Notes under the pieces: model-generated | What the model was told of the DNA's origin: nothing | Seen by the model: the letters and a program-made list of their open reading frames with translations, nothing else | Databases searched by the model: none | Shown here: piece after piece, positions 28,720-41,930 of the stretch | How the letters are laid out: each line of letters begins with the position of its first letter | Position numbering within the stretch: the stretch's first letter is position 1 | Origin: an uncultured delta proteobacterium | GTDB taxonomy: Bacteria > Myxococcota_A > Polyangia > Polyangiales > Polyangiaceae | Assembly: GCA_963782055.1 (NCBI GenBank) | Contig: CAWAIF010000003.1 | Location: forward strand, 4,128,001 to 4,192,000 | Direction: 5' to 3' | DNA length: 64,000 nucleotides | Program-made: the position numbers and the translations under genes

Positions 28720-29200
28720 GATGGGCTACCTGGTGTGGTCGGCGCTGCAGCAGGCGTCCGACGGGGACGCGCGCATGCGCGCGGCGCAGCGCGCCTGGAT
28801 GGCGCACGCGCAGCGGCAGGCGCTCATCGCGCAGTTTCCCTACTTCAACCCCGGCCACGACTGGGAGATGGCGACCTACCACGACCGCCGCGTCGGCTTC
28901 ACCGTCGCGCTGCCGGGCTACCCGCGACCGCTGCCGGTGACCCCGCACGGCGCGTGGGGCTGGCAGGAGCAGGCGACGGCGCCCCCGGAGCCGCCGGCCG
29001 ACGCGCTCCTCGGCCTGTCCGACGTGCCGGTGGGCGTGCGCTTACCGCGCCGCGAACGCGCCCGCGGTGCGCGAGCCGACGGTGGACCAGCTCCGCGGCT
29101 GGGGCGTGGGGGCTGCGGCGAGCGCGGCCTACGACCTCGCCCGCCCCGACGCTTACGGCGCGGACCGCGAGGTGAGCGCTCCCTCTCGCGCCCGCTCACG
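28720..29200 (+). pseudogene. Hypothetical gene with apparent frameshift at ~29042 and 3' end lost in a repeat element
   Basis: GC3-biased frame up to ...VPVGVR; an extra T (GTG CGC T TAC CGC) moves the coding-like sequence (YRAANAPAVREPTVDQLRGWG) to another frame. Confidence 0.45.
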
Positions 29201-29207
29201 TACATGG

Positions 29208-29761
29208 GGGCGCGGGCGCGGGCGCGAGGGCGGGCGCGAGCGCGAGGGCGGGCGCGAGCGCGAGGGCGGGCGCGGGCGCGGGCGCGAGGGCGGGCGCGAG
29301 CGCGGGCGCGGGCGCGAGCGCGAGCGCGGGCGCGGGCGCGGGCGCGGGCGCGAGCGTGTGGAGAAGAAGGAGCTCGCTCGGGATGGGGTATCGTCCCGGC
29401 CTTGCGGACTCCGAGCACGGCGGGACGATGACCTCCGCCCGAGCGAGCCCCCTCCCTCACGCGCTCCCCTCCCTCACGCGCTCCCTCCCCCCCCTCGCGC
29501 TCCCTCCCCCTCCCGCGCTCCCCCTCCCTCCCGCGCTCCCTCTCCCTCCCGCGCTCCCTCTTCCCCTCGCTCTCCCTCTCCCTCTCGCGCCCGCTCTCCC
29601 TCCCCCTCTCCCTCCCCCTCTCCCGCGCTCACAAGAGAGAAGCGCGGGCGCGGGCGCGGGCGCGGGCGCGAGCGCGGGCGCGGGCGCGAGCGCGAGCGCG
29701 GGCGCGGGCGCGGGCGCGAGCGCGGGCGCGGGCGCGAGCGCGGGCGCGGGCGCGGGCGCGG
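29208..29761. repeat. Low-complexity palindromic element: GCGCGG/GCGCGA hexamer arrays, central hairpin and C/T tract
   Basis: Hexamer arrays at 29208-29356 and 29641-29761; CCCT/CCCGCGCT tract at 29449-29630; inverted repeats 29372-29382/29438-29448 and 29390-29398/29421-29429. Confidence 0.85.
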
Positions 29762-30514
29762 TCAGTCCGCCTCCGCAGCCCCCACCACGTGCAGGTTCGC
29801 CCGCGATTGCACGAACACCACGCTCCGGGTCCCCGCCTTCGCCGGCTGCGTCACCGTGCCGTGGTACGCCCTGCCGGCGAGCGACCCGAGCCTCCGCAGC
29901 GATCGCACCACCGGGCCGTGCTCCAGCGTCAGCCCGCCGTTCTCCCCGCGCGTCACGTGCGTGGAGAGGCCACGCTCCACCACCGCGAGGAGCACGTCCG
30001 CCGCGCTCGCGTCCGCCACCCCCGCGCCGTTCACGTCCACCCGGAGCGTGTCCCCCGCGCGCACAAGCGTCACCTTCGCCTTCGGCGTGCGGGCCGCCAG
30101 GGCGATGGCCCGCTCCGCCGCCGCACCGCGCGAGCCCACCAGCTCGCTCGCGCCGTCGATGACCATCTGCGGCGTGTAGACGCCCGCGCCCACGAAGGAC
30201 CGCGCGTAGGCGCGCTGCCGGTCGGAGAACGCCGCGCTGGAGAAGGGATCCGTCCAGCCGAGGCGGTTCCAGTAGTCGACGTGGAGCTCCAGCGCGATGA
30301 CGTGCGCCCCCGCCACTGGCTGCTCCCGGTCCAGCCGCCGCAGCTCCTCGTCCGCCGGCGGGCACGAGGAGCACCCCTCGCTGGAGAAGAGCTCCACCAG
30401 CACCGGCGCGCGCGGCCCGGCGGGCGCCGCCTTCGCCGCGCGGTGGTGAACGGCAGCCCCCGTGGCGATCGCCGCCGCGCCCACGCCCAGCCCGAGGAGC
30501 AGCCATCCGCGCAC
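29762..30514 (-). CDS. DUF1223 thioredoxin-like exported protein
   Basis: VELFSSEGCSSCPPAD, HVDYWNRLGWTDPF, YTPQMVIDG, RGENGG. Confidence 0.9.
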   Translation of the reverse strand: MRGWLLLGLGVGAAAIATGAAVHHRAAKAAPAGPRAPVLVELFSSEGCSSCPPADEELRRLDREQPVAGAHVIALELHVDYWNRLGWTDPFSSAAFSDRQRAYARSFVGAGVYTPQMVIDGASELVGSRGAAAERAIALAARTPKAKVTLVRAGDTLRVDVNGAGVADASAADVLLAVVERGLSTHVTRGENGGLTLEHGPVVRSLRRLGSLAGRAYHGTVTQPAKAGTRSVVFVQSRANLHVVGAAEAD

Positions 30515-35346: not shown

Positions 35347-36525
35347 ATGAAGCGTCGAGTCAATGTGATTGGCGTCGGGATGATCAAGTTCAGCAAGCCC
35401 GGCGCGAGCGAGGACTACAACGTGATGGCCGCCAAGGCGGCCCGCGCGGCCATCGAGGACGCCAAGGTGCCCTACGCCGAGATCGAGCAGGCCTACGCCG
35501 GCTACGTCTACGGCGACTCCACCTGCGGCCAGCGCGCCGTCTACGAGGTGGGCCTGACCGGCATCCCCGTCTTCAACGTCAACAACAACTGCTCCACCGG
35601 CTCGACCGCGCTGATGCTCGGCCGCCAGGCGGTCGAGGGCGGCATCGCCGAGTGCGTGCTCGTCGTCGGCTTCGAGCAGATGGAGAAGGGCGCGCTCGGC
35701 AGCAAGTTCACCGACCGCACCAACCCGCTCGACCAGCACGCGGGCGTGATGAGCAAGGTGCAGGGCTTCAACAACGCGCCCCCCGCCGCGCAGATGTTCG
35801 GCGGCGCCGGCCGGGAGTACCGCTGGCGCTACGGGACGAAGAAGGAGACCTTCGGCAAGGTCAGCGAGAAGGCGCGCAAGCACGCGCACCAGAACCCCCT
35901 CGCCATCTTCAACAACCTGCTGACGCTGGAGGAGATCATGACCTCCCCGGAGGTCTTCGACCCGCTGACGCGCTACCAGTGCTGCCCGCCCACCTGCGGC
36001 GCAGCGGCGGCGGTCATCTGCTCCGACGACTTCGCCAAGAAGCACAACATCCAGAAGCCGGTCTACATCGCCGCGCAGGCCATGACGACGGACTACCAGT
36101 CCAGCTTCGGCGACTCGATGATCAAGATGGTCGGCTACGACATGACGGTGAACGCCGCGAAGAAGGTCTACGAGGAGAGCGGCATCGGCCCGGAGGACGT
36201 GGACGTCGTCGAGCTGCACGACTGCTTCACCGCGAACGAGATCCTCACCTACGAGGGCCTCGGCCTGTGCAAGGAGGGCGAGGCGGAGAAGTTCATCGAG
36301 GAGGGGCAGAACACGTACGGGGGCAAGTACGTGACGAACCCGTCGGGCGGGCTCCTGTCCAAGGGGCATCCGCTCGGGGCGACGGGGCTCGCGCAGTGCA
36401 CCGAGCTGGTGTGGCAGCTCCGGGGGCAGGCGGACAAGCGGCAGGTGGAGGGGGCGAAGGTCGCGCTGCAGCACAACCTGGGGCTGGGCGGGGCGTGCGT
36501 CGTGACGATGTACAGGAAGGATTAG
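35347..36525 (+). CDS. SCPx-type thiolase (lipid-transfer protein)
   Basis: NVNNNCSTGS, QCCPPTCG, VELHDCF, NPSGGLLSKGHPLGATG, QHNLGLGG; ATG 35347. Confidence 0.93.
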   Translation: MKRRVNVIGVGMIKFSKPGASEDYNVMAAKAARAAIEDAKVPYAEIEQAYAGYVYGDSTCGQRAVYEVGLTGIPVFNVNNNCSTGSTALMLGRQAVEGGIAECVLVVGFEQMEKGALGSKFTDRTNPLDQHAGVMSKVQGFNNAPPAAQMFGGAGREYRWRYGTKKETFGKVSEKARKHAHQNPLAIFNNLLTLEEIMTSPEVFDPLTRYQCCPPTCGAAAAVICSDDFAKKHNIQKPVYIAAQAMTTDYQSSFGDSMIKMVGYDMTVNAAKKVYEESGIGPEDVDVVELHDCFTANEILTYEGLGLCKEGEAEKFIEEGQNTYGGKYVTNPSGGLLSKGHPLGATGLAQCTELVWQLRGQADKRQVEGAKVALQHNLGLGGACVVTMYRKD

Positions 36526-36924
36526 GGGGGCCCCTCCTCGCGTGTGCTCGGGCCCATGCTCGCTCGCACGCGTGCCGTCGGTGGGTGCGAGGTGCACCGG
36601 CGTCGGCACGCGCGCGAGCTTGCGCGTGGGCCCTGCGCGCACGCGCAAGCTCGCCCGTCGCTCGCTCGCGCTCGCTCGGGACGGGGAGGATGGTGTCGTG
36701 CACGACCCTTCCTCGGCGGAGATGCGTCGTTGACCCTCCCCTCCCCCGCGTTCGAGGAACGGGGTGGGCGGCGCACGAGGGGCTTCGTGCAGCGCCACGC
36801 CGGTGGGCGGAAGAAGCCCGCCGGCCTTCCGGGTGGGCGAGCTGGCGTGACTGCGGCCGTCATGCTTCTTTCGCCTCGGGAGGGCATGGCGCTGCACGAA
36901 GCCCCCTCGCTCTTCTTCCTCCAT

Positions 36925-37030
36925 CACCACGCTCGGCGGATCCGGCGGGAGGATGCGACGCGGTCGGAGGTGATGATGTGGCGGGCGCTCAAGGGGCGGA
37001 AGGTGGGCGGGTGAAGTTCCGGCGGCGGCG
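36925..37030 (+). pseudogene. DUF559/Vsr-like endonuclease N-terminal remnant
   Basis: [27 protein letters not shown], then VKFRRR after a 1-nt shift, matches the family opening (ARxLRR..T..E..LW..L..R...G.KFRRQ); the rest is absent. Confidence 0.55.
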
Positions 37031-37088
37031 AGAGCGGCTCGGACTGGTCGGAAGCGCGCGCGCGCATCCTTCGGCGTCTCGGCCACGC

Positions 37089-37235
37089 GTGAAGCTGCGC
37101 ATCGATCCGGAAGCAGAGGAGGAGCTCGCCGCTGCCACGACGTGGTACGAGTCCCAGCGCGCAGGACTGGGCGCGGACCTCGTGGCTGCGGTGGACGCGG
37201 CGTTCGAAGCAATCCTGTCGGCCCCGCTCGCGTCT
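37089..37235 (+). pseudogene. RelE/ParE-family toxin N-terminal fragment
   Basis: [46 protein letters not shown], followed by unrelated sequence; no antitoxin upstream. Confidence 0.65.
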
Positions 37236-37351
37236 CATCGCGCTGGCGAGCGCGTTCCTCGCCCCGGGCGGCGAAGCGTACGTGGGGGGCGAGACGTACG
37301 TGGCGAAGCCGGCGGGGACGCTCTTTCGCCGCGCACCGTGACCCGACACGA

Positions 37352-37593
37352 TCAGCGACGATAGTCGCGCCGCATGGATCCGTCGTGGCGGCCGCTGCGC
37401 ATGCAGCAGGCCTTGAAACCGCCTCGTCGACCCGCACGGGCACGGATCGTTGCGACCGAGGCGCTCGAGGAGCTCCTTGTCGCCGTGCACGACGCGGTCA
37501 CCGCGCTTGACGTGGGCTTCGGACGGGAAGCCCGCGCGGCGCTTGCTCGTCCGCTCGAAAGCAGGGGGCTTCCAGGTGGTCCTCGGGTCTCAT
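37352..37593 (-). CDS. Small SEC-C zinc-binding protein (79 aa) decoded across two +1 frame changes
   Basis: GGGAGG SD + ATG 37593; frame 0 [12 protein letters not shown]; +1 frame [28 protein letters not shown]; +2 frame [12 protein letters not shown] stop. Both junctions are TTT-C. Confidence 0.7.
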
Positions 37594-38160
37594 GGCGCAC
37601 CTCCCGGTGTGCTGGACGCACGCGCGGCGCGCGCCTGACATCGCTCGCGCGCGGCTCAACGGCGAGGCTCGTCCCCACCGGGAGCTCCATCACCAGACCC
37701 CGCGTCGCGTAGCCGAGGCGCTCGTAGAGCTCGCGTGCGCGGGTGTTCCAGCTCCAGACGTGGAGCTGGACGGCCTCGGCGCCCTTGGAGGCGGCCCACG
37801 CGTGCGCGGCCTCGAGGAGGGCGCGGCCGACGCCACGACCTCGGTCCGGCTCGCGCACGACGACGCCCTCGACGACGGCGACGCGGCGCGGGACGGACCC
37901 GTCTCCGTCGCGCGGGGGCTTCATCAGCACCTCGACGACGCCCAGGACGGCGCCGTCCTCGCGCGCGACCAGGAGGGCGTGATCCGGGGAGCGGATCCGT
38001 TCGAGCATCCAGTCCATGGATCGCGCGGGGCCCGCGCGCGGGCGGAACACGTCGGGCGTCTTCTCGGCGTGGACATGATCGGATTCGGCGAGCACCTCGC
38101 AGACCGCGTCGTAGTCGGCCAGGGCGGCGGGTTCGACCAGCATCGAGAGAGGCTAGCACC
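37423..38160. repeat. Diverged direct duplication, copy 1 (GNAT + SEC-C gene)
   Basis: Colinear high similarity to 41173-41904, including the intergenic and promoter sequence. Confidence 0.9.
37668..38143 (-). CDS. GNAT acetyltransferase, copy 1 (stop bypassed by a 1-nt deletion relative to copy 2)
   Basis: VVREPDRGRGVGRALL motif A; LHVWSWNTRARELYERLGY; near-identical to 41399-41887. Confidence 0.85.
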
Positions 38161-40182: not shown

Positions 40183-40219
40183 CGACGCGAGTGTAGCGGA
40201 CGGCGCCGGATGCCACACG

Positions 40220-40975
40220 TCAGGGCGGCGTGGGTCCCGGGGCGGCGCACAGCTTCGAGGAGCCGGCGCGGCAGCCGATGCGGGTCGCTCGGTCGATGGC
40301 CTTCGACACGAGCGGACTCGACGGCGCGTTCTGCAGGACGCCCACCAGGTACTCGCACGCCGTCGCCACGCCGTCGGGGTGGTCGAGCGCACCGTCGCAG
40401 CCTCTGAGCAGTGCCTGCAGCGCCCGGGAGCGATCTTGCGGGACGCCTTCCCCCCGCGCATACGCCGCACCGGCCATGGCGCAGCCCTCCGCCTCGCCGG
40501 CGGCGCAGGCGAGCGCGAAGAGCCTGGCGGCGCACGCGAGGCTCACCGGATCGCGATGCTCCAGGCGCACCGTCGCACCGTAGTTGGTGCACCCGAGCAC
40601 GTTCCCCAGACGACACGCTCGCTCGTAGAGCCGCAGCTCCTTGCCGCGGTCGGGGTGGTCCGACTCCGCGTCCATGTTGCCTGCGGTCACGCACGCCGGG
40701 GCGCCGCCCGCGTCGCAGGCGCGCTCGCACGCGTGCGCGTCGCCGCACGCGTCGTCCGGCTCCAGACCGGAGATGGCGCCTGCGGGCGCCGCGCAGGCGG
40801 CGATGGCCGGCTTCGCGGACGAGGCTGAAGGCGCAGGCGCGTCGGGCAGGCGTACCTCGGTGGCCGCAGGCGACGCGGGTGGAGGGCTGCTCCCGGCACC
40901 GCACCCGAGCATGAGCAACACGCCGCAAACCGCGCGGACGTGTCGGGCGGCGAGAGGGAGGGTCGGTGGCTTCAT
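40220..40975 (-). CDS. Sel1-like repeat lipoprotein
   Basis: Lipobox MLGC; repeats [34 protein letters not shown]. Confidence 0.8.
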
Positions 40976-41172
40976 CGCGAGCCGGAGAGTGGTCGGAGCG
41001 CGCAGCGATGGCAAGCCGGGCGCTCGCGCGTGGCGCACCCCGGACCGGGCACCGGCAGTCGCAGCACGCCGTTGAGTGCGAGACCCCAGGTGCCATCCGC
41101 CCCGCTCGTCTGCGTCTGCCTTGCGATGGCGGTCGAAGCTCTCCCGCGACGCCCACGGCATCGCGCATGGGT

Positions 41173-41342
41173 TCGTCGATCCGCACGGGCACGGATCGTT
41201 GCGGCCGAGGCGCTCGAGGAGCTCCTTGTCGCCGTGCACGACGCGGTCACCGCGCTTGACGTCGGCCTCGGACGGGAACCCCGCGCGGCGCTTGCTCGTC
41301 CGCTCGAAAGCAGGGGGCTTCCAGGTGGTTCTTGGTTCTCAT
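41173..41342 (-). pseudogene. SEC-C small gene, copy 2, truncated after CPCGST
   Basis: Same SD/ATG and same TGC-TTT-CGA site (41307-41309) as copy 1; similarity stops just before the second TTT-C site. Confidence 0.7.
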
Positions 41343-41398
41343 GGCGCACCTCCCCGTGTGCTTGACGCACGCGCGGCGCGCGCCTGACACCGCGTCGC

Positions 41399-41887
41399 TC
41401 ACCGGCGAGGCTCGCCCCACAGCGGGATCTCCATCACCAGGCCCCGCGTCGCGTAGCCGAGGCGCTCGTAGAGCTCGCGCGCGCGGGTGTTCCAGCTCCA
41501 GACGTGGAGCTGGACGGCCTCGGCGCCCTTCGAGGCGGCCCAAGCGTGCGCGGCCTCGAGGAGGGCGCGGCCGACGCCGCGGCCCCGGTCGGGCTCGCGC
41601 ACGACGACGCCCTCGACGACGGCGACGCGGCGCGGGACGAAGCCGTCCCCTTCGCGCGGCGGCTTCATCAGGACCTCGACGACGCCCAGCACGGCGCCGT
41701 CCTCGCGCGCGACGAGGAGCGCGCGATCCGGGGAGCGGAGCTGCTCGAGCATCCAGTCCATGGATCGCGTGGGGCCGGTGCGCGGGCGGAAGACGTGGGG
41801 CGTCTTCTCGGCGTGCAGGCGGTCGGACTCGGCGAGCACGTCGCAGACCGCATCGTAGTCGGCGAGGACGGCGGGTTCGACCAGCAT
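41399..41887 (-). CDS. GNAT acetyltransferase, copy 2
   Basis: RGRGVGRALL, NTRARELYERLGY; intact 162 aa. Confidence 0.9.
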   Translation of the reverse strand: MLVEPAVLADYDAVCDVLAESDRLHAEKTPHVFRPRTGPTRSMDWMLEQLRSPDRALLVAREDGAVLGVVEVLMKPPREGDGFVPRRVAVVEGVVVREPDRGRGVGRALLEAAHAWAASKGAEAVQLHVWSWNTRARELYERLGYATRGLVMEIPLWGEPRR

Positions 41888-41930
41888 CGGGAGAAGCTAC
41901 CACCACCGCCCAGGAAGCGGCGGGCGTCGA

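Follow-up and report, generated by a model that had tools for sequence, protein, structure and literature searches.

Does the small gene at positions 41173..41342 really change its reading frame after a dozen codons and, if so, what brings the change about and what might it be good for? The gene lies on the minus strand of the window, i.e. the whole 64,000-nucleotide stretch of DNA that was analysed, where it belongs to the second copy of a block consisting of a GNAT acetyltransferase gene and the small gene. An earlier note on this DNA had claimed that the frame change is genuine, and that the differences between the two copies reveal selection on the shifted frame.

The first copy of the small gene (copy 1) is intact. 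It follows a GNAT gene (37656..38143, minus strand; PF00583, E 1e-19) and a Shine-Dalgarno (SD) sequence GGAGGT (37599..37604, minus strand), starts at ATG 37593 and encodes, in three frame segments (37352..37593, minus strand), a 79-aa protein designated P0123. If each TTT-Y is taken as one four-base step, of which copy 1 needs two, the gene translates as a single open frame. Site 1 is the TTT-C within TGC-TTT-CGA (37557..37560, minus strand), and site 2 the TTT-C within CGG-TTT-CAA (37415..37418, minus strand). The latter is placed between Cys-Pro-Cys and Cys-Cys of a SecA-type (SEC-C) metal-binding motif (37397..37454, minus strand) of the form CXCX8CC (bioRxiv 10.1101/613315, in part), which is whole only across site 2. 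Read across both sites, P0123 gives a full match to PF02810 (positions 1-19 of 19; 34 bits against a cut-off of 20.4). Both breaks use codons that are rare in the host genome, TTT representing 2.9% of the Phe, CGA 3.2% of the Arg and CAA 3.0% of the Gln codons. The folding of the copy 1 mRNA was unremarkable (z -0.41).

Directly after copy 1 the window contains a repeat (36500-37030) with about 60 blastn matches in the genome at 70-95% identity, and no Pfam match was obtained for its ORFs. Parts of two ORFs converge on copy 1 from the plus strand (37015-37250), namely the last part of one that looks antitoxin-like and the first part of one that, by eye, resembles ParE/RelE; a Pfam search with the latter remnant gave no match. 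Long low-complexity tandem arrays with 12- and 18-base units are found at 29150-29810.

Copy 2 has the same beginning. Its GNAT gene (41399..41887, minus strand; PF00583, E 1e-19), the 5' part of the duplicated block, differs from that of copy 1 at 47 of 480 nucleotides, and 21 of the changed codons are synonymous and 17 non-synonymous. In both GNAT genes a TAGC(C/T)T hexamer stands 7 bases ahead of the ATG in place of an SD sequence (38144-38160 and 41888-41904, minus strand), an arrangement that may indicate leaderless transcripts. The small gene of copy 2 starts at ATG 41342, preceded by GGAGGT (41348..41353, minus strand), and its frame-0 leader comprises 12 codons, the last of which is TTT for Phe (41307..41342, minus strand). 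Site 1 is again the TTT-C within TGC-TTT-CGA (41306..41309, minus strand). Without the putative +1 shift at this site, translation would end at the frame-0 stop (41247..41249, minus strand) with a product of 31 aa. The +1-frame core (41173..41308, minus strand) extends up to the first half of SEC-C (Cys-Pro-Cys), and matches PF02810 at positions 1-9 of 19 with 17.7 bits, which is below the cut-off.

At 41173, before the second site would be reached, the resemblance to copy 1 breaks off. Copy 2 is a 3'-truncated duplicate that comprises the 5' two-thirds of the gene, and it lacks the second site and Cys-Cys; instead of the complete CXCX8C(C/H) with the conserved Ser and aromatic residue, only Cys-Pro-Cys-Gly-Ser is retained. 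The 3' third has been replaced by unrelated DNA (41024..41172, minus strand), throughout which the +1 frame is open. No match was found between this segment and a DNA profile of the family 3' part (the copy 1 tail scores 35.7 bits), nor did it have a second match in the whole genome. The missing 3' piece occurs in the genome a single time, in copy 1. Copy 2, in which site 2 and both terminal metal ligands are missing, is most probably a non-functional relic.

It could alternatively be a functional new fusion, in which one +1 shift would join the half SEC-C peptide, via a 65-codon linker, to a lipoprotein-like protein. The candidate partner (40220..40975, minus strand; weak Sel1 repeat, PF08238, E 0.004, below the cut-off; a lipobox-like motif is visible by eye) is in the frame of the copy 2 core, and this frame runs open from 41308 into it, as far as 40223. 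Start, SD sequence and site 1 are all intact, and the core carries a single amino-acid change within 45 codons. However, 60% of random 66-codon stretches of the GC-rich window are stop-free. The lipoprotein-like gene has its own ATG, and its second genomic copy, 91% identical over window positions 40213-41023 (G000:C3:2328817-2329630), is without this leader; the signal peptide would presumably be buried by an N-terminal extension. Furthermore, no recurrent fusion partner was seen among the best 120 of 299 longer database proteins, and the one amino-acid change, to Asp, occurs in none of 132 representative relatives, which have Q, R, H, N, K, G or S at this position. We therefore consider a working fusion highly improbable.

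The sequence comparison of the two copies went as the earlier note had described it. The leader has changed, while CCC-TGC-TTT-CGA (codons 10-13) is identical in both copies (41304-41315 and 37555-37566); allowing at most one mismatch, this string was matched three times against 0.28 expected. Three differences (41279, 41267 and 41263) separate the copies between the site and the stop. All are non-synonymous in frame 0, two (GGC/GGG and GAA/GAG) are synonymous in the +1 frame, and the third exchanges His and Asp in that frame. The later differences at 41204 and 41180 are both +1-synonymous. A TGA of the +1 frame lies across the ATG, and this frame has no ATG, GTG or TTG ahead of site 1. The use of the pair as internal evidence held up in part: four of the five post-site differences are +1-synonymous (P for at least four of five = 0.015), which is barely above chance. 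The pairwise synonymous test was discarded as a means of locating the shift, because two of the three leader differences (41333 and 41330) are synonymous in the +1 frame as well. The claim of selection acting on copy 2 itself was not borne out, as the 4:1 pattern also fits a neutral copy 2 and a constrained copy 1 (P = 0.084), and neither the Asp nor the tail has a counterpart in the family. That the first frame change is no sequencing error, and that the +1 frame is under selection, was supported by the evidence of homologs rather than of the pair.

Homologs were collected using the middle segment of the gene. A protein search identified 168 proteins of similar length, and a scan of GTDB genomes yielded at least 177 relatives from presumably about ten phyla (assigned from record names), of which 80 loci were used. 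The query for a second set, of 80 metagenome loci, was a natural protein with sites 2 and 3 fused in frame, a choice that biases the set towards such forms. From the frame offsets between conserved anchors, 144 of 162 loci were parsed; the 18 dropped loci were copy 2, seven without an SD-linked start, four in which the last Arg could not be placed and six lacking another anchor. After removal of redundancy, 132 representatives with less than 90% nucleotide identity were retained.

The distribution of the gene is patchy. It was detected in none of 200 other genomes of the class (23 of these with part of their bases left out) and in 3 of 81 genomes of the genus of locus L078, which is that of the cultured bacterium Caulobacter vibrioides OR37. 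The protein core is 71-88% identical across phyla. One genome (G202, locus L068) has two copies on different contigs. A search of mobile elements returned one full-length match in IMG/VR and two plasmid records, and a phage origin was set aside on this basis. Databases contain only out-of-frame fragments of the family, and its real product is therefore unannotated: none of 240 database proteins is open through sites 2-4.

No single-frame gene was present among the 144 parsed loci. The 132 representatives have 376 breaks, 366 of them on an in-frame TTT-C/T, seven on CTT-C/T and three on neither, so that 373 carry a phased motif permitting P-site tRNA re-pairing; by comparison, only 2 of 151 unbroken windows contain TTT-Y. 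In a profile alignment of 82 loci that allowed +1 and -1 steps anywhere and used no nucleotide motif (the profile was built from 65 frame-restored products and is thus not fully independent), 105 steps were +1 and one was -1. The +1 steps fell exactly on TTTC/TTTT in 93 cases, two codons earlier in seven, near CTT-C in two and elsewhere in three. The breaks occupy four main positions: after the leader (site 1), inside the metal motif (site 2), before Asp-Gly (site 3) and at the last Phe before the terminal Arg (site 4). Each position is fused in frame somewhere in the family, site 1 in L156 and sites 2, 3 and 4 in 45, 60 and 44 representatives, respectively.

A strong SD sequence precedes the start in 129 of 132 representatives, and in 76 of the 78 loci that have such an SD-linked start it is +1 out of frame. 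The segments beyond the breaks are conserved only in the shifted frame (amino-acid entropy 0.30-1.37 versus 1.24-2.56); in the block right after site 1 the values are 0.30 in the +1 frame and 1.84 and 1.73 in the others. The leader amino acids are unconserved in every frame (3.10, 2.97 and 2.98), and the assignment of the leader frame therefore rests on the SD sequence, on the start codon and on the lack of stops: frame 0 of the leader is stop-free in 119 of 119 representatives, the other frames in 37 and 29. Past site 1, frame 0 always stops ahead of the cysteines (119/119), at a median distance of four codons and in 31 of 119 genes immediately. Site 1 is TGC/TTT/TCC-TTT-CGA in most genes, with C-ending 5' codons favoured (TGC commonest, 41/119) and CGA the commonest 3' codon (75/119). 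At site 2, all 87 broken representatives have TTT-Y, followed by CAA in 71. Programmed +1 frameshift genes are characterised by a conserved break beyond which the new frame is under purifying selection, and this is what the family displays; we infer a frameshift here from these sequence patterns.

The number of sites is constrained while their positions turn over at four Phe codons. Three sites are present in 103 of the 132 representatives, two in 18 (the type to which copy 1 belongs), four in 10 and one in a single gene, so that the constraint is not strict. All pairs among sites 2-4 are common (45, 31+8 and 25 in the main patterns); the three sites occur together once, and none of them is never the case. 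Exactly two of sites 2-4 are broken in 111 of 131 genes, compared to a permutation mean of 58 and maximum of 82 (20,000 permutations), and the pattern recurs in each set taken apart (63/73 versus 37 and 48/58 versus 29). A tree of 128 tips, computed with the site columns left out, implied 10, 18 and 20 minimum changes; it is weak (SH-aLRT at least 80 on 48 of 125 branches). Against a tree-aware null of independent evolution, exactly two sites were found in 110 of 128 genes (mean 56, maximum 99), and all three of sites 2-4 in one (mean 33, minimum 4). In an acidobacterial-type group (L087 and L135-L137), site 2 has been lost and a CTT-C is present three codons on, leaving the total at three. 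A need for a net gain of three bases was rejected as the reason for three sites, given that 29 of 132 genes have another total.

Some loci depart from the main pattern. In L045, L087, L135, L136, L137 and L166, site 2 is gone and CTT-CGG, a prfB-like Leu site, stands three codons later. L066 has site 1 in frame and TTT-TAG at the next conserved Phe instead, its total again being three. At site 1 the offset is +2 in nine of the ten four-total genes, for the most part on a seven-T run, which may represent one event. Ten loci (L099, L106, L116, L122, L123, L132, L143, L149, L153 and L155) have seven rather than six T at site 1, many of them within tRNA arrays; such a site needs +2, be it by two slips, one +2 slip, a -1 slip or polymerase slippage.

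These data bear on the simplest objection, namely that the breaks are sequencing or assembly errors, or that the genes are decayed pseudogenes. A T added to TTC would indeed also yield TTT-C, and four single loci (L057, L061, L086 and L095) have a damaged appearance. Such accidents would not be expected to recur at fixed positions in 132 representatives of less than 90% identity, to go in the +1 direction in 105 of 106 steps, to keep to three of four sites, or to leave purifying selection on all shifted segments. Moreover, for L078, three of four public runs are identical to the record over the whole stretch including all sites, and the fourth covers two sites; these runs, probably DNA and contigs that may include the source of the record, bear only on assembly error. 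The chance that errors or decay account for the family is, in our view, negligible.

A second alternative dispenses with frameshifting: separate peptides would be made by internal initiation or re-initiation at ACG, GTG or ATG, or only the middle segment would matter. The +1 frame has an ATG, a possible independent start, in 40 of 119 representatives and any ATG, GTG or TTG in 65, and in 31 frame 0 ends right after site 1. Nevertheless, the +1 frame of 54 of the 119 reaches the KRG motif without any such codon. The stretches of 20 residues that follow sites 2 and 3 contain no start and are conserved only in the shifted frame, the metal motif is split by site 2, and each site is fused in frame in some natural homolog. 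Separate peptides are thus a most unlikely explanation.

If the frame is changed, it could be changed in the RNA, by polymerase slippage or another one-base deletion followed by normal reading, or on the ribosome. All sites are T runs, some of six or seven T, and a seven-T +2 site 1 was seen in 8 of 9 inspected +2 representatives (10 in all), which speaks for restoration in the RNA. The runs on which RNA polymerase slips are typically far longer than three or four T, which is the length at most sites, and seven breaks are on CTT-Y, the P-site codon type of prfB. In addition, the family avoids TTT-Y within the reading frame. At unshifted Phe positions before a pyrimidine, TTT was used in 10 of 118 cases, these ten being unshifted in-frame TTT-Y, versus 386 of 1019 in ORFs next to the GTDB loci (P = 4e-12). 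No such difference was found ahead of a purine (20/84 versus 501/1790, P = 0.46).

The codons around the sites are also under selection. Of the 363 A-site codons after TTT, as read in the old frame, 127 are stops (74 of them TGA) and 330 are either stops or CGA/CAA/CAG, a bias that is partly forced by the following amino acid. AGR encodes the terminal Arg after site 4 in 69 of the 85 shifted genes, as opposed to 14 of the 44 unshifted ones (P = 6e-8), compared to 62 of 747 Arg codons of the middle segment; AGR after site 4 makes the A-site codon TAG or CAG. TGC stands 5' of site 3 in 31 of 71 shifted genes and 1 of 60 unshifted ones. Because these codon patterns depend on the reading frame, they favour the ribosome over RNA polymerase. 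We are highly confident that ribosomes do the shifting, and regard restoration of the frame in RNA as very unlikely.

Stimulators of the kind known from other frameshift genes were searched for at the sites. SD-like pairing was present at 6/119, 13/87, 5/65 and 2/85 sites against a background of 10.5%, which gives no indication of an internal SD of the prfB type, and no clear 3' structure was detected in the first 70 of the 132 representatives (mean downstream folding z -0.20, -0.78 and -0.32). The basal efficiency may therefore be very low. No convincing k-mer emerged as an upstream motif, and a -10-like upstream hexamer was dismissed, its frequency (45/126) being close to that in shuffles (43).

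As regards the tRNA, the host genome has one tRNA-Phe(GAA) gene, with a 7-nt loop and A37-A38, together with miaA and miaB, and 670 of its 30,165 Phe codons are TTT-Y. Quadruplet decoding by an expanded-loop tRNA was rejected, as there is no tRNA-Phe with an 8-nt loop in the host genome and no four-base anticodon among the tRNAs of the loci. ARAGORN indicated two tRNA-like elements with four-base anticodons elsewhere in the host genome (gccg and gcaa; G000:C3:1261047-1261132 and 6242435-6242514), neither of which reads UUUC and both of which are possibly false. Five of eight array-borne tRNA-Phe(GAA) genes (L068, L102, L150, L156 and L157) have G37 and hence no MiaA site, and could encode a slip-prone inducer in some hosts. 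As a general trigger this tRNA was rejected, the host tRNA-Phe being only of the A37 type; in a pattern search of five carrier genomes, A37 genes were found in all five and the array-type G37 in one, with three having only A37 as a clear match; there were also some weak G37-like matches elsewhere. Loss of the A37 modification of tRNA-Phe reportedly raises +1 slippage. This modification needs the Fe-S enzyme MiaB, and drops under iron restriction (PMC5699536, in part).

The product would be a basic protein of about 80 aa with a SecA-type SEC-C motif. The best matches among solved structures were the YchJ and SecA motifs, and an ESM Atlas search gave SEC-C clusters only. Domains specific to the YchJ, YecA or SecA families were not recognised, the NCBIfam scores being 16-32 bits against cut-offs of 68-267. 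An AlphaFold2 model of the natural protein P0053 (86 alignment rows; pLDDT 69, pTM 0.40) was confident only from residue 41, and Foldseek retrieved nothing for it from the PDB. SecA-type motifs bind ribosomes and prefer iron; for those of SecA, YecA and YchJ, binding of Zn or Fe and of the ribosome or SecB has been reported (10.1101/613315, in part). By analogy, the family product may bind a metal and the ribosome or SecB; that it acts on the ribosome or on RNA is a tentative proposal, to which we give somewhat less than an even chance.

The genomic surroundings were surveyed for further hints. The nearest ORFs (150 of the 156 passing a crude ORF filter, six doubtful ones being left out) are mostly unrelated, and neighbours and orientation vary widely. 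GNAT was discarded as a conserved neighbour, occurring at only 2 of 80 GTDB loci. Of 160 loci, 27 have at least two tRNA genes close by, with near-identical loci counted separately (7 of 80 GTDB loci within 2.5 kb and 20 of 80 metagenome loci within 1.5 kb), compared to 0.2-0.3% of random windows of the host genome; the other 133 loci have fewer. RtcB, Rsr, RtcA, HNH or RNA ligase genes are found beside several loci. Four loci were widened after such hints and so do not constitute a sample: L176 has 23 tRNA genes with Rsr, RtcB and RtcA, L177 tRNAs, HNH, Band-7 and RtcB, L178 RtcB, and L179 an RNA ligase and an HD-kinase protein. In the window, none of these repair genes is near the gene, the host rtcB being about 2.7 Mb off. 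In Anabaena, tRNA arrays with rtcB are induced by ribosome-targeting antibiotics (PMC8421152, in part).

That HNH, RNA ligase or tRNA genes lie just downstream on the same strand at some loci would suit another explanation, in which the product is irrelevant and the progress of the ribosome controls the downstream gene in cis, in the manner of a leader peptide. The variability of the neighbours among the 150 ORFs speaks against it, as does the conservation of the protein core across phyla with the complete metal motif kept, and we judge control in cis to be very improbable.

Taken as a whole, it appears likely that serial programmed +1 slips gate the synthesis of a small, possibly ribosome-associated metal-binding protein, which may be a sensor of translation stress. 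Ribosomes would start efficiently, and most would terminate within a few codons of site 1. When UUU occupies the P site and is followed by a pyrimidine, the peptidyl-tRNA-Phe(GAA) could move forward by one base to pair with UUC or UUU, aided by slow reading of the A-site codon (CGA, CAA, CAG or a stop). As the sites are in series, their efficiencies would multiply, and the yield of full-length protein would be about p cubed for three sites; going from 1% to 10% at each site would, arithmetically, increase the three-site output a thousandfold. Accurate translation would then give almost no full-length protein, and more P-site slippage a steep rise. Since sites 2 and 4 precede the second half of the metal ligands and the conserved last Arg, respectively, partial products would lack these parts. 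Such an accessory translation-stress gene would report the loss of reading-frame fidelity by its own synthesis.

Whether the efficiency is regulated, making the gene a sensor, appears to us evenly balanced. The fullest version of this reading, in which a horizontally spread gene counts three slips of tRNA-Phe at positions that turn over, yields a small metal protein binding the ribosome or RNA only on fidelity failure (due to damaged, repaired or under-modified tRNA, or to antibiotic-hit ribosomes) and acts as a trigger or effector of repair by tRNA arrays and RtcB, is possible, though we would put it at rather less than even. Its main rival accepts the same ribosomal frameshifts at a fixed ratio: the serial sites would serve to keep the amount of protein very low and constant, because the cell is harmed by an excess or requires only traces, and nothing would be sensed. 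No stimulator able to carry a specific signal was found, the patchy spread is typical of accessory genes, and a conserved site number is as compatible with a target level as with a switch. On the other hand, a weak start would be sufficient for low constant expression, whereas the SD sequence is strong in nearly all genes. Nearly all sites share one P-site tRNA, so that their efficiencies should move together, and the gene is linked to tRNA arrays of a kind induced by antibiotics in Anabaena. A fixed ratio seems the less likely reading, albeit well within consideration.

Copy 2 alone adds little, and the weight of these proposals is on the family. Two to four sites per gene, with the total mostly kept at three, point to the number of slips as the means by which evolution adjusts expression, which would produce a steep response to translation accuracy. 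If this is true, UUU-Y slippage, an error hot spot, has become a used signal, and the gene offers a ready natural reporter of ribosome fidelity. The claim is testable because cultured carriers, such as C. vibrioides OR37, exist.

No description of the family was found in the literature searched, which was mostly open, subscription papers being largely outside it. The family was not found in the consulted part of the GeneTack survey (PMC3711429) or in two of its three supplementary files, and file 1 may list it. No bacterial programmed frameshift with several sites was found in the same literature, those encountered being single-site. In the consulted part of PMC5009743, the only examples given of genes with multiple shifts come from retroviruses, Euplotes and mitochondria.

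Outside frameshifting, two systems resemble the family. The SEC-C domains of SecA and of YchJ/YecA (PF02810) share with it CXCX8CC and the conserved Ser and aromatic residue; unlike them, the family protein is stand-alone, has a basic N-terminal half of no known family and a motif split by a frameshift. The trn operon arrays of Anabaena (PMC8421152, in part) are similarly horizontal and patchy, with HNH and RtcB neighbours, and the gene at L176 lies inside such an array. However, the main text of that paper names no SEC-C gene, and most family copies stand alone.

Among frameshift genes, prfB (CUU_UGA_C) is comparable in its short frame-0 leader, P-site +1 slip at YUU-Y, slow A-site codon and function in the new frame. 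The family differs from it in having two to four serial sites instead of one, in the use of Phe rather than Leu, and in the changing position of the sites. Its A site holds all three stops or CGA/CAA/CAG, so no single release factor is sensed, and it has no internal SD stimulator, the prfB combination of an SD-like element with an RF2 stop cassette being absent. UUU_Y is especially prone to +1 slippage in bacteria, and the shift tetramer of the family is that of the E. coli argI error site, Yersinia yopN-tyeA and the influenza PA-X cassette UCC_UUU_CGU (PMC5009743, in part), to which site 1 is close. Those are single sites that give a minor second product or an error, whereas in the family repeated shifts are needed for the conserved product. 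The multi-frameshift genes of Euplotes and some mitochondria (PMC5009743, in part) likewise have several frame changes per gene; there, however, shifting is corrective and a genome-wide decoding habit, while the family is found in ordinary bacterial hosts, TTT-Y is rare in the genome studied here and the number of sites is constrained. The slip on UUU_Y at a single site is known chemistry; its serial use within one small gene is the unusual part of the design.
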